NCBI RefSeq assembly: GCF_964204645.1
Contig: NC_134027.1
Coordinates: 3,442,485-3,506,484, forward strand
DNA from: Tubulanus polymorphus
Lineage: Eukaryota > Animalia > Nemertea
DNA: 64,000 nt
Direction: 5' to 3'
Part shown: positions 6,631-12,600 of the stretch, piece after piece
Layout of the letters: each line of letters opens with the position of its first letter
Position numbering within the stretch: position 1 is the stretch's first letter
Program-made: the position numbers and the translations under genes
The notes under the pieces: model-generated
The model's input: only the letters and a program-made list of their open reading frames with translations
What the model was told of the DNA's origin: nothing
Databases searched by the model: none

Positions 6631-9600
6631 ATGCTTAAGTTGATAGCAATGTTGCTATGGCTGACTATGGTTGATCCATTCGTCACAGCCAGATGTCTCA
6701 ATCAAACAGGTACGGTATGCGGCATTTTTACCGACGTAACAATTTGTTTTTGATAATCGACGACCTTGATTGATAGAATTGAGTTATCTTTATAGTGGTT
6801 AAGAGGCCGCGTTACTTCTTCCCGTATGATCAGGATAAGGAAGCGATTAAGCTTGAAAGCAGCACGCGTACATCTCACTTGCTCGCTAATTCTGTGCTGA
6901 AGATTTTACTGGAGGAAGTTGTCGGCTACGCTGAAGTTTACATCGCTACTGTGGCTGACTCCATCAATGCCACGAAAGTAATGAACCGCATTGCTGGCTG
7001 CACGGAAGTTGAGTAAGTTTGACACATTGCATTAGAAGACTAGCATGTCTTTTATCAATATCGGTATTTCTGCTGTGTATATATTTTCTTATTTGAAGTC
7101 GTTGAAATTTGATGGATTCCGGTCCGTCAAATTTTAGTAGAACTCATGTTATCATTAGGTTTCACTAGCACATCTGAACATTAGATTTAGATCTTAGCCT
7201 AATATTGGTTGATTCTTTCGTGTCAGACACTAAACATATGCAGCTATAGTGCCACATTACAGATATATTATTTACGATATGCATCAATTTGTGTTTAATT
7301 TGCTCAAATGATATCAATCTCGACATAAAAACGCACGAGAAAATTCTTCCCAGCTAAAATGATATACCCGATATCAAGTATTTTGATTGGAATTCTATGC
7401 AATTATAATACAAATACATGCATATTCAGTGCTTTTATATTTAGCTTATTCAGCTTAATTAACATTTCTATCTTTAGGTCAAGAAGGTCAACATATCAAC
7501 CATACATAAGGCAATACTATATATTTATATATAATATATAGTTATACATATACATATATTATAGGTTGATGTGTGATTTATATTTATTGTGTTGATTATT
7601 TGGGCGATCAATCCTTACCGTTCTAATAGTTCCATCACATGTTTCAAATTAAAAAAAAAGCGATAAGGATTTGTCGTTGGAACCCTTCGTCGTTAAATGT
7701 CTCAAATGCTTCAATTGTAAAATGTGATCATTGAATCCTATTTGTTATCTCTATGAACTGTTTACAGATTATTTGACTTACTTCTGAATAGCTTTTCTAT
7801 TACTCGAACGATACTGGTGAAAATTAAGCAAAACTTCCTGGAACCTTTCACATTTTTTGTTTGAATTTCTGTATAGTGAATGATTAACTATTCTGAATTG
7901 GTCGTCTTATCTTTTATGGTATTCATATGAGAGACGGATCCTGGGGCCAATTTCGAAGAACTTCACATCCCAAAAATGTTAGGTGTTCTCCCATATTTGA
8001 CAAAATGAAAAAAGGCACTCAAAAGAATTTCAAGGACGAGTCCCTCTGGATCCGCCCCTGTCTATATATATATATATGTATTTACGCTTATAATAACTAT
8101 GCAGCTTGCTTTGCTAATCTTCAGCGGTTTAGAGCGGCCTTCTACTGCATACTACCATTGGAACAGCATAAATAAGTTTTCACCAAAGTTTGTATCAATC
8201 GGAAATGTTTTTCTTTACTTTTTCTTCACTCAATGTTTGCCCTCTTTTTCTTTCACCGCCCTCACCCTGTTCTATAAGCCACGATCACGCGGAGTCGATT
8301 TGGCCCGGGCCAAATTGGCACGGATCAGGCTCGGTCCAAATATGGCCCGTGCCTAATTAGAGAGCGCGTTCACACATAAACCATTCACTCGATACTAAAC
8401 AATGCTCAAACAAAGCGAAGTGGATCATTTCCGATGCCAGTTGCAATTCAAACGCAATCATTTGTCTGGTGCTAAAATTTGACTCGGGGCCTGGTCCGAC
8501 GTTTTTGGTCGGGCCAAACAGGCTCGGGCCCATTTGGCACCCGTGTGAACAGTTGGACCAAAAATGCTCGTGTGATCGCGGCTATACTGTAGTGTGTGTA
8601 GCATCAAAACTAGTTAAATAAATGATCGAGTTCACTACGATAGAATATATTACAAATTCTCTGAATCGAATCATTTATTTTTAGTTTAAGATGAATCTTG
8701 AACACGTAATGCACAGGTTTGAATCGTAAAAAGTATTTCGCGGCTGTATTTGTTCATTCATATATCAAACTTTTGCATTTCGGTAGCAGACGTCAATGCT
8801 CTATTTTAGAAAAGGCATGACAATTAACCTGCTACCTTGATCAGTATTGATCAGTAAACGTTGATTTGTCCGCGGTGTATGTTTCCTCTATCTCATGTTA
8901 ACCTACACATCTTCTACATGTAACTAATATAACTACAAAAGTGCACAATATTTAAAATGATATTAAAACAGACTCAGAGAACGAACAGCATCGACAGATC
9001 TATTCAGGCAGCAAATTTATTTCACTCGTTTTGTAATACTTTCGTGTCTTATCAGAAGCTGGTACATGAATGTCAAAATAGGCCAGACTGAAAAAATATG
9101 TTGACATTTTCACAAGTGAAGTGCTTTACTTACAAATGTCACATTACATCAATGTGTTACATATTATGATATTTATTATGTACTCCTCTTGAGATTTGAA
9201 ATATGAAATGTATGTTTACTTATTCAAAACCAACTTCAGATAACATTTTTCCAGAACTTACCCTTCCATCACCCAAGAGTTTTGTCCAGTTGTAAACACA
9301 TTAAATAGACGCTACTAACTTCATTGTTTGCTATGATTATTTCCCTATTGAATTGTCCTCGTCAGGGTTTTGTCCACCTTTTTGTGGGTCGGGTGTGTTT
9401 GTCTATGGATTGGTGTTAATTTCATCCAAAAATATGAGAAATTAGAGAAATTCTGAGTAATAATGCATTAGGTTATTCATATCATAAAGTGAACTATCTG
9501 TAAGTTGTGAAGTAGATTATTCAAAGCCTGACAGATTGACCCGCAAATCTTGTAGTTTGAACTTTGAAATAATTTGAAAGTATTTGTTATTCCAAATGAG

Positions 9601-12600
9601 TCATACTTGTTTTCGTATGATTTTAGATGCCGTAATCGAATAAACTCATCAAAGACCGTACCAGTTACGATGGTGAATCTAGAAGTATGGATGATGCCTG
9701 GATTTAACGTCGAATCATGGGTCAGCAGTGGATACCTGATCGACTGCGGTCCGCTGGGGCCGAATGCTCGATTTGGTTGGTTTCAACCGACGTATATGGT
9801 CATTAAATTTTGGAAAGAGAAGAAATTGATTGTCGATCATTGGCGAGCGTTTCAGGAATATTCAATCTCTGAACAGTATTCATTGGTAAGAGATTTCAGT
9901 GTGTTTATTACTACTGATTAATGATTCATCACTGACGGTTTCTCATTTTGTTTGAATTTTAGAAGTCACAACGCGATAGATTGCGTCAACTAGTGAAGTC
10001 GGGTAGTCCGACTGATCCGTATCATTGTCAGGATACTGACTGCGTTAATGGTATCTTGTACGGTCCTGGATGTAATACGACAAATGAAGATCGATGCGCT
10101 TTACTTTTCAGTAGTACTCCAGGTAAAAATCATTTTTCCAGATATTGAAAATGTGTTTGCTTAAAAATGAGGATATCGAATGTTATGTCCTTTTTTTAGA
10201 GCTCGATATGGGAATACTGAAAAAACAGATTATCAACTTCCAAATGCACGTGAACATAGCCTGGATTGGAAACAACCTAACGTCATACGTGACCGAACAA
10301 ATCAAACTCGGTAATCCGATACTGTTCTTCAGCTGGCAACCAAATACGTTTACCGCGTACAACTTCACGCGTATGAAGTTTCCGCTTTGTACCGAGACTC
10401 AACACGGAAAACCGATAGACTGTGATTTTGAGATTAACCAGCTTACGAAGGTCGTGTGGTCGCGTTTAAAACGCAACGCACCCGAGGCTTTCCATTTAAT
10501 CAATAATATCGAATTCAAACAGCAAACGTACCAGGATATTATCGACAAATATCGAGATATGGAAGCGAAACGTAGCTCGATACAAGCGCATGAGGTAGCG
10601 TGCGAATGGGTGAGGGAAAATAAAGATATCTGGAAGCACTGGATACCGCCTGATTTAACGAATAAGACAAAGATCTATCTGGGAGGAATGTTTCCATTGA
10701 CTGGTCGACATTGGACGGGCCCCGGTCTCCTGCCTGGTAAATCTTATTCCATCTTACCATTAATATCATCGAAGAAATTTGAAATATCATTCGTAAACTT
10801 GTCGATGTATTTTCTTGTAGCTGTTCATATGGCAACTGATGCCATAAACCAAAACTCAACAATTCTAAGTGATTATTCATTAGAGGTATTAGTTACGAAT
10901 ACGCAATGCGTGAGTAAAGCTGCCATGAAAGCATTCATTAGTTATGTCACTAATACAACGCACAAAATTGCTGGAATACTCGGTAAGTAAAAGCCAAAAA
11001 GATCGTAAAACTTTGTGAGGAGAATTTTGGCGTTTTCAAATTGGTTTCTATTAATGTGTTCCAGGTCCTGCTTGTTCCGAGGCTGCTAAAACTGTAGCTA
11101 GTATGGCAACTCCATTTAACACAATTGTTCTGAGCTATGGTGCAGAATATCCGGTTCTATCAAAATCTAAAGACTATCCGAATTTCTTCCGTACTGTCCC
11201 ACATATTGGACAACATGGGTAGGAAATTTCTCTCATGGAATATGATGATGAAATTGGAGCTTCCTAGTACATTTATGATCTATATTTGGCATTCTAGTCT
11301 GGTCTATGCTGAAGCGTTCAAGGTATTGGGTTGGACGCGTGTTGGTCTACTGATTGAACGCGATGTCTATTCATTCATGCAACATTCGTTAGAAAGCTTC
11401 GGAATAAATGTAGTCGAATATATAAACATCCCTAAAACACATTCGTTCGATGCAAGTCAGGTAAGAAAAAGTTTAACGGAATAGAGAAAAATCAGTCTTT
11501 AAGAATTGGCATAAGATATCTTTCATTCGGTATTGAATTTCTATAATTTTTCGATTGAATCTTCTTTCATTGTATCTGTTAATATCAAATGTATGAATCG
11601 GATTGTTTTGTTCAGTAACCTGAATAAGTTTAACTCAAGTGAATCTGGATTGGTTGTTCTCTTTGAATTACATGTGGTTTAAGATTATAGTTGTATAGAT
11701 GATAAATGTGTGATTAAAGTGATCGAAGTGGATTTAAGATTTCTGCATGTTCTCGCCGCCATACCGGATGACATGGCATACACACACACCCCTGCCTACT
11801 TCAGATATTAAAGGGTTTTATGTTTGTGTTTGTCATTAATTTCTGTCCGTCGCGAGTGTTAATGACTTCTGCCTCCTATTTCTTTACCCTCAGAATATTC
11901 AGGTTACAAATGAGTATCTCACATCGGTAAGACATGACCTCGAATTCTTTAAAACACAAATTCAACATCACCGTTCTGTTGACAATGTGTTTGTAAGAGA
12001 ATGTCAACCACTATTTACTCTTTTTCTCGCTTTTACCGAAAAGTTATCAACCCGTTTTTAAGCATTCACTTGACACCTCAAAACCTCTGGGATAGTAACG
12101 TAGCTCCATCCTCCCTCGTGTGCCAACAACACCTAGACTGAAGGTGAAAGAATTTACCCTACCTGCATTCATTAAAGTACCTGTAGATGTAATCTGATCC
12201 CTTATTCCTTGAACTGGTTGTTTCTGCAGTGTTGTTAGTGTTCAAAGATCAATCTTTATTTACTAGGGTAGCCACTGACCTGGACAATTTGGAATCAGGG
12301 AAAACTCAAGGAATTTGGCAAATTTTACTGAAAACTTGGAAAAACTCAGGGAATTCGCATAAAATGCTATTGACCACATGTTTCTTTATAAGTACGTGAT
12401 TCAATGAAAAACGATTCACTCGAGACATTTTGTGTCGTCAAATGGACAAATCTGGGAAAACTCCTGGGTTTTGTAAATTGGCCACCCTGTTATTGGAATT
12501 AAAGCGTTAACTCCCCCTTAGGTTTTGAGTCAGTGTTAAGTGAACCATTTATGTATAGAATTTAGGATTTGGATGCTTGCTTACTTGTCGCTCTGCCGTG

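Follow-up and report, generated by a model that had tools for sequence, protein, structure and literature searches.

The Venus kinase receptor (VKR) of the nemertean Tubulanus polymorphus carries two clamshell domains in a row, an OpuAC/ProX-class type-II binding domain in front of a GABA-B-like Venus flytrap (VFT). The gene lies in a 64,000-nucleotide stretch of contig NC_134027.1 (assembly GCF_964204645.1, forward-strand positions 3,442,485 to 3,506,484), which we call the window and from whose first letter all positions are counted. The front domain (residues 30-392, exons 2-5) is at 6804..10660 on the + strand, and it is followed on the same strand by the VFT (residues about 396-820, exons 5-12, 10670..14318), a single transmembrane (TM) helix (residues about 838-864, exon 13, 14532..14670) and an insulin-receptor-like tyrosine kinase (residues 905-1168, exons 14-18, 14751..16367). 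The architecture is real and family-wide, and it is apparently undescribed in the VKR literature searched; receptors joining OpuAC to a seven-transmembrane (7TM) region are already in print. The gene is an ordinary nemertean VKR ortholog, and the difference lies in how the family has been described.

A type-II binding domain fused to a Venus kinase receptor

Profile and fold searches assign residues 30-392 to the OpuAC/ProX class of type-II two-lobe binding folds. Against the Pfam OpuAC model, exon 5 alone scores 23.5 bits, above the gathering score of 21.2, and the whole protein scores 20.5 bits (E 4e-4, residues 268-377), just under it. Exons 2, 3 and 4 searched singly in Pfam give no OpuAC match, and the NCBIfam ProX model gives 16 bits, far below its cut-off of 215. 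A single-sequence search of the PDB finds a weak TmoX match (E 0.018) amid chance TPR matches; a profile of 10 orthologs finds four PDB sequences at E ≤ 0.1, all binders of the betaine, trimethylamine N-oxide (TMAO) or dimethylsulfoniopropionate (DMSP) type, with TmoX (4xz6) as the best at E 2e-11. The AlphaFold model of residues 30-392 has a predicted local distance difference test (pLDDT) of 68 and a predicted template modelling score (pTM) of 0.58. With this model, Foldseek ranks DmpX and TmoX at the top (E 1e-10), followed by ProX, OpuAC and ChoX, the whole range going from 1e-10 to 8e-8. In a fold search of 48,161 chains, all 13 chains with Z of at least 8 belong to the betaine/choline/ergothioneine binding cluster. 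The best of these are DmpX, ProX and TmoX at Z 13-14 (top Z 14.0, 236 residues aligned, root-mean-square deviation (rmsd) 13 Å), and the next structural class does not exceed Z 6.2. The top three matches in the ESM Atlas are all OpuAC clusters at 0.89, which we take as a lead only. Fold searches with the 868-residue ectodomain model of an ortholog (P0006) return VFT matches only, and no low-rmsd superposition of the front domain.

The VKR domain shares with bacterial OpuAC/ProX-type binders (PF04069: TmoX 4xz6, DmpX 7yle, ProX 3tmg, ChoX 2reg, OpuAC 3l6h) the two-lobe fold, at Z 12-14 over 222-238 residues, the E-x-W, F-x-W-x-P and terminal A..W...N...W..W motifs, and the two cage tryptophans that correspond to TmoX W102 and W222. 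The identity is only 12-17%. Unlike the bacterial proteins, the VKR domain has an arginine in place of the first cage tryptophan, has lost the third aromatic, and includes an insertion of about 40 residues with four cysteines as well as N-glycosylation sequons. It also differs from the binding protein of an ABC transporter in being fused in frame to a VFT, a TM helix and a kinase in an intron-containing animal gene. An earlier note, made from the DNA letters alone, had proposed a ProX/OpuAC-like type-2 domain before the VFT, naming the absence of a match to that fold as grounds for giving it up; the TmoX profile match and the 13 type-II chains bear the proposal out. All six motifs that it listed are in one frame, at residues 53, 115, 148, 278, 313 and 369, and the stretch it marked runs from the start of exon 2 (6796) to codon T392 (10658-10660). 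The long stretch it had put before the VFT is there, but it measures about 375 residues (from the hydrophobic N-terminus to IYLGG, residue 397) and not about 390.

Splice-site placement gives a gene of 18 exons at 6631-16925 (+), all with GT-AG introns, and a frame of 1353 codons with zero internal stops. The spliced product is letter-for-letter identical to a Tubulanus polymorphus RefSeq protein (P0001). The fusion of the front domain and the VFT is real, and exons 2-9, at the least, belong to one transcribed piece. Exon 5 codes for the last part of the front domain together with the first strand of the VFT, and a 7028-nucleotide contig from run X3 (whose kind is not on record) has the five introns between exons 3 and 8 removed at the modelled GT..AG sites. 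Its loose ends match the last part of exon 2 on one side and the first part of exon 9 on the other, so that exons 2-9 are joined. This spliced contig comes from one of the four runs examined; the other three gave unspliced contigs. Because of the shared exon and the spliced contig, both clamshells belong to a single transcript. The earlier note had named a separate transcript for the 5' exons as a possible objection, and it had argued against contamination. That these exons form a gene of their own, were joined wrongly in the model or come from contaminating bacteria is practically inconceivable: the length of intron 2 (2614 nucleotides) and the sub-threshold Pfam match of the whole protein would fit it, and it is ruled out by exon 5, the spliced contig, the identity to the RefSeq protein, and the same fusion in 99 of 105 independent VKRs.

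The rest of the protein is that of a VKR, as the earlier note had it. Pfam finds PF01094 (ANF_receptor) at residues 416-766 (E 1e-52) and PF07714 (tyrosine kinase) at residues 905-1168 (E 8e-89). Hydropathy gives one internal peak, in windows starting at 833-847, which corresponds to a single TM helix. The kinase motifs are all present: GEGAFG for GxGxxG, K937 and E954 of VAxK(x16)E, HRDLACRN, DFG, the tyrosine pair Y1069-Y1070, and WMAPE. Within the VFT, S476 in GPACS is equivalent to AgVKR S505, matched by way of a mutagenesis primer given in the available text of PMC6401105, and R514 in FFRTV maps by motif to the published amino-acid-motif R107. The ortholog ectodomain model matches GABA-B1 at Z 45-46 with an rmsd of 2.2-2.5 Å. 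A search for proteins with both VFT and kinase gives 392 matches at E ≤ 1e-60. Among the best 120 of these 392, which are the ones examined, are named VKRs at E ≤ 1e-183 and a thrips 'NeuroparsinReceptor'. The proteins Capitella 136189 and Lottia 109151 are 37-40% identical to ours in the front domain, 39-41% in the VFT and 66-67% in the kinase; in Table 1 of PMC3703292, as far as that source was available, they are CtVKR and LgVKR.

Distribution among Venus kinase receptors and other eukaryotic receptors

The front domain, taken as at least 250 of 357 profile positions, is found in 114 of the best 120 of 392 matches with VFT and kinase. There are 105 VKRs independent of the earlier set, and 99 of them carry it; the remaining six start inside the VFT or at most 227 residues before it, and thus look like truncated models. 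The VKRs with a front domain come from molluscs, annelids, a brachiopod, chelicerates, crustaceans, insects and hemichordates, so that the idea of a novelty private to Tubulanus polymorphus is rejected. No flatworm, cnidarian or lepidopteran VKR was identified among the matches listed (the best 120 of 392). Precomputed Pfam annotation reports OpuAC in only 6 of these 120, which may explain why the domain has been overlooked. The expectation that other VKRs would carry it unannotated has thus come true. In lophotrochozoan VKRs (P0002-P0010), the identity is 39-48% for the front domain and 39-53% for the VFT, and by this measure the front domain is as conserved as the VFT.

The VKR family (SmVKR1/2, AmVKR, AaeVKR, CtVKR, LgVKR) has in common with our protein the GABA-B-like VFT, the one TM helix, the insulin-receptor-like kinase and the GPACS serine. 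It differs in its printed description: the available text of the VKR papers (PMC3703292, PMC4522560, PMC4038586, PMC6401105) models the flytrap, the TM helix and the kinase only, which is the usual description that the earlier note had given, and leaves the front clamshell of about 365 residues unnamed. That clamshell is nevertheless present in CtVKR and LgVKR themselves. The literature covered on VKRs and related receptors, in the text available of each source, includes PMC3703292, PMC4522560, PMC4038586, PMC2680970, PMC4026697, PMC6401105 and PMC5601475. An OpuAC/ProX domain in a VKR is not named in the literature searched, outside of which fell most subscription papers, figures and supplements; the domain diagrams in these may be relevant to the claim of novelty. 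In some VKRs, the fold may already be flagged by the domain tools of databases.

A profile of the front domain finds 1385 representatives at E ≤ 0.001, and a Pfam architecture scan covered 78 of its best 150 matches. Outside VKRs, the matches fuse a domain of the front type to 7tm_3, kinase, guanylate cyclase, TIR, TRP-like, RGS or channel domains, with Hondaea, Goniomonas, Chromosphaera and Capsaspora among the sources. We built a quick midpoint-rooted IQ-TREE phylogeny, with approximate likelihood-ratio (SH-aLRT) support only, from 87 rows (103 minus 16 near-duplicates). All 38 rows with VKR architecture and four fragments form one clade with SH-aLRT 97, and this clade is long-branched. Since the tree is without a proper bacterial outgroup set, we claim no donor and no order of events. 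The cysteine insertion (at least four cysteines) occurs in 85 of the 103 rows and is absent from P0040, a TmoX-like bridge protein. By profile, architecture and tree, the VKR front domain belongs to a eukaryotic sensor family that is also found on 7TM, cyclase, TIR and channel outputs. The earlier note had called the domain an old animal feature. It is indeed in the VKRs of many animal phyla, but the statement is incomplete, as protists and unicellular holozoans carry the domain on other receptors, and in this sense its origin lies before the animals.

The closest known counterparts are the G-protein-coupled receptors with OpuAC and 7tm_3 of fungi and protists, and related protist receptors, which have the same domain family, the cysteine insertion and the position as a receptor ectodomain. 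They differ in that the full aromatic cage is mostly kept (tryptophan at the first position in 35 of 41 rows, the third aromatic in 31 of 45). OpuAC before 7tm_3 in 'Glutamate-family' receptors of fungi and other eukaryotes is described in the available text of PMC3251606 and PMC3971589. Individual members of the wider family combine the domain in other ways. P0137, which is not a VKR, has an OpuAC-like domain, then an ANF_receptor VFT, then a TRP-like membrane region; since the tree places its OpuAC-like domain apart from the VKR clade, the OpuAC-VFT tandem may have arisen twice. P0059 and P0064 have an OpuAC-like domain, a partial 7tm_3 match and two kinase domains, and they branch close to the VKR clade's base, where the tree is unresolved. 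In P0069, an OpuAC-like domain precedes an ion-channel pore (Ion_trans_2 and Lig_chan matches), making it a candidate ligand-gated channel. P0110 (Capsaspora NPR2) is a receptor guanylate cyclase with a natriuretic-receptor name and an OpuAC-like ectodomain with no ANF_receptor match. Ionotropic glutamate receptors also stack a type I and a type II clamshell in one ectodomain; there, unlike in VKRs, the type I domain is outermost, the type-II domain is of another subfamily, and the output is a channel and not a tyrosine kinase.

The altered cage and possible roles of the front domain

Bacterial relatives hold their ligands between aromatic residues. In the available text of the structural papers, TmoX holds TMAO in a W55/W102/W177/W222 box (PMC8918994), DmpX uses four tryptophans (PMC10030565) and OpuAC a prism of three (PMC2861598). 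We mapped the TmoX pocket onto the VKR domain by sequence, through P0040 (E 3e-42 to TmoX; hhalign 99% to the VKR profile). By this mapping, TmoX W102 corresponds to W120, kept in 37 of 41 clade rows, and W222 to W284, kept in 31 of 42. TmoX W55 corresponds to R51, with arginine in 32 and an aromatic in none of 39 VKR clade rows; at the same position, non-VKR rows have tryptophan in 35/41 and arginine in 1/41. The independent VKR set repeats this, with arginine in 86 of 94 and an aromatic in 0 of 94. The W177 position (L240/D241) is aromatic in 2 of 41 VKR rows versus 31 of 45 non-VKR rows, and residues 239-241 include an aromatic in 7/105 of the independent set. The mapped cage is thus incomplete, with the W55 and W177 equivalents apparently lost and W120 and W284 kept. 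With arginine and no third aromatic in VKRs and the cage kept in protists, the protist relatives look like betaine-type binders and the VKRs do not.

These substitutions bear directly on the proposal that the ligand is an osmolyte with a quaternary amine or sulfonium group (glycine betaine, proline betaine, choline, TMAO or DMSP), bound by cation-pi contacts, which would make VKRs sensors of an osmolyte plus an amino acid. We consider it improbable. The domain's fold neighbors at Z ≥ 8 are, 13 of 13, in the betaine/choline/ergothioneine cluster, W120 and W284 are kept, F125, F148 and F282 adjoin the mapped pocket positions and could partly rebuild a cage, and the host is a marine worm. Moreover, the TmoX1062 mutant W38A, at the same position as TmoX W55, retained fairly high TMAO affinity in the available text of PMC8918994, so that loss of the first tryptophan alone does not exclude binding. 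On the other side, the arginine takes the place of the first tryptophan of the TmoX/DmpX box and, by alignment numbering, of the OpuAC prism, the position has no aromatic in either VKR set, the W177 position has lost its aromatic as well, and a cationic residue inside the cage should repel a trimethylammonium group. The cage for the osmolyte ligand that the earlier note had favored keeps two of its tryptophans and loses the other two, which weakens that reading at the level of mapped residues.

The front domain is predicted to sit on the VFT through a short linker. The ectodomain of ortholog P0006 (868 residues, 62-row alignment), whose front domain is 48% identical to that of Tubulanus polymorphus, is modeled with pLDDT 90 and pTM 0.79 over both clamshells, and the linker between the two domains has 9-10 residues in 79 of 95 measurable rows. 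Two copies of residues 30-392 give a homodimer model that scores 0.41, versus 0.03 for the best of three controls. It was folded without a supplied alignment; at least 65% of the contacts recur between runs, and pLDDT is at least 79. The mark used for dimers was passed by 21 of the 30 microbial homodimers and by none of the 23 monomers; of the eukaryotic proteins, 17 of 29 pairs pass (animals 7/16; without an older solved relative 1/7), and none of 30 monomers does. Modeling thus supports, short of showing, a homodimer of the front domain, which passes modestly.

Our preferred reading, held tentatively, is that the flytrap binds amino acids and the front clamshell is a second, non-betaine input, whose ligand would meet Arg51 and shift the dimer. 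The receptor presents a pair of successive clamshells, first an OpuAC/ProX-class domain with an apparently rebuilt cage and then the GABA-B-like flytrap. L-amino acids such as arginine would bind the flytrap through the GPACS serine (S476) and bring about dimer autophosphorylation, as the available text of PMC4038586 and PMC6401105 reports for amino-acid-induced VKR dimers of other species. The short linker is predicted to seat the front domain on the flytrap in a defined orientation, with two front-domain copies touching through residues 161-176 and 295-301. A cleft lined by S49, R51, H54, E118, W120 and W284 may then accept a ligand with an acidic group, which might be a segment of a peptide hormone or a small metabolite, anionic or zwitterionic; closure of the cleft would shift the dimer and change kinase output. 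The evidence for this reading comprises the fold, the family-wide retention, the conservation on a par with the VFT in lophotrochozoans, the ectodomain and homodimer models, the constant linker length, and the VKR-specific conservation at the cage position, where R51 is found in 32/39 clade rows and 1/41 others. Further VKR inputs are OEH/neuroparsin (PMC4522560) and, for SmVKR2, Ca2+ (PMC4038586), and the available text of these two papers contains no site mapping for either.

The same arginine would also suit a structural cap, in which Arg51 acts as a tethered pseudo-ligand between W120 and W284 and locks the clamshell, and the domain is a rigid dimerizing spacer that the receptor needs in order to fold and to keep its two VFTs in the right geometry. 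This is possible, and we give it somewhat less credence. Placed in the cage, the arginine could stack on both tryptophans that are left, the lobe-II pocket residues vary, the homodimer model passes, and the high pTM suggests that the domain is held in a fixed position against the VFT. In published work, activation by amino acids has been traced to the VFT serine (PMC4038586, PMC6401105, available text). The surface that such a spacer would use shows no clear extra conservation, and it is a general observation on GABA-B-type VFTs that they dimerize with no such cap.

Several observations weigh against a second, non-betaine input. The published arginine response needs only the VFT serine in what is available of PMC4038586 and PMC6401105. 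The pocket mapping rests on alignment through one bridge protein. The lobe-II pocket varies among VKRs, with F282 replaced by leucine in 48 of 101 and W284 kept in 75 of 101, and W120 is proline in 8 of 99; this is more variation than expected for one shared ligand. In insects the front domain is 27-30% identical, versus 36-39% for the VFT, and so drifts faster. Conservation of the predicted dimer surface is 0.50 versus 0.43 for random positions (p 0.15, not significant), and that surface abuts the N293 glycosylation sequon. Finally, the single-domain model itself is only of medium quality, and deviates by about 13 Å rmsd from its best matches, probably because of uncertain lobe placement.

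We rank the second, non-betaine input first, the structural cap next and the betaine sensor last. A wider proposal, which we regard as doubtful, is that VKRs are two-input kinases built on a pre-animal family of betaine-type domains, rewired by the change from tryptophan to arginine, in which the front clamshell and not the flytrap binds neuroparsin/OEH in arthropods and the hormone or metabolite that would activate the VKRs of worms and molluscs. VKRs control egg formation in schistosomes and mosquitoes. A family-wide clamshell of about 365 residues with a VKR-specific pocket residue is a defined place to seek the binding of the second signal, it offers a possible invertebrate-specific pocket, and it links VKRs to wide and little-studied protist receptors with an intact cage. 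The available text of PMC4522560 names two open questions: how a VKR can respond to small amino acids as well as to a peptide hormone, and what its activators are in animals other than arthropods. Through the same paper, which cites Vogel 2015, we also know of OEH as a VKR input.

Exon positions and neighboring features

All 18 exons are on the + strand. The coding part of exon 1 (6631..6709) gives the ATG and a hydrophobic N-terminus (residues 1 to about 21), a likely signal peptide by hydropathy. Exon 2 (6796..7012, residues 27-99) begins the OpuAC-like domain and includes S49, R51 and H54, with the R51 codon, at the TmoX W55 cage position, at 6867-6869. Exon 3 (9627..9885, residues 99-185) has E118, W120 (codon 9688-9690, equivalent to TmoX W102), R147 and the DHWR motif at residues 169-172, a predicted dimer contact. 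Exon 4 (9963..10122, residues 186-239) carries the insertion of about 40 residues with C207, C212, C222 and C230. Exon 5 (10200..10736, residues 239-417) has L240/D241, F282, W284 (codon 10334-10336, equivalent to TmoX W222), K322 and the terminal helix to W386, after which come a short linker and the first VFT strand. The VFT continues in exons 6-8 (10821-10982, 11065-11218, 11298-11460) and 9-12 (13171-13266, 13357-13614, 13863-14002, 14084-14319); the codon of S476, in the amino-acid motif, is at 11076-11078, and R514 of that motif is likewise present. The kinase is in exons 14-18 (14751-14994, 15073-15341, 15549-15661, 15767-15974 and from 16298), and exon 18 (16298..16925) also encodes a Ser/Asn-rich C-terminal tail and the stop codon.

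Three neighboring features of the window are on the - strand. A WWE-domain exon (3290-3685, E 4e-7) is part of an upstream gene in divergent orientation. A frame with an array of C2H2 zinc fingers (21249-22349, Pfam zf-C2H2 E 2e-28) lies in convergent orientation to the VKR gene and resembles a Snail/Scratch-family factor. Exons of an ABC transporter (42890-45754, ABC_membrane_2 E 1e-90) presumably encode a peroxisomal ABCD protein. Within the VKR gene, introns 8, 15 and 17 contain a short repeat family (12293-12473, 15370-15504 and 16019-16116) with six copies of a 25-nucleotide unit. The intron-15 copy has inverted ends of 20 nucleotides, and in their layout these repeats resemble a small non-autonomous transposon.

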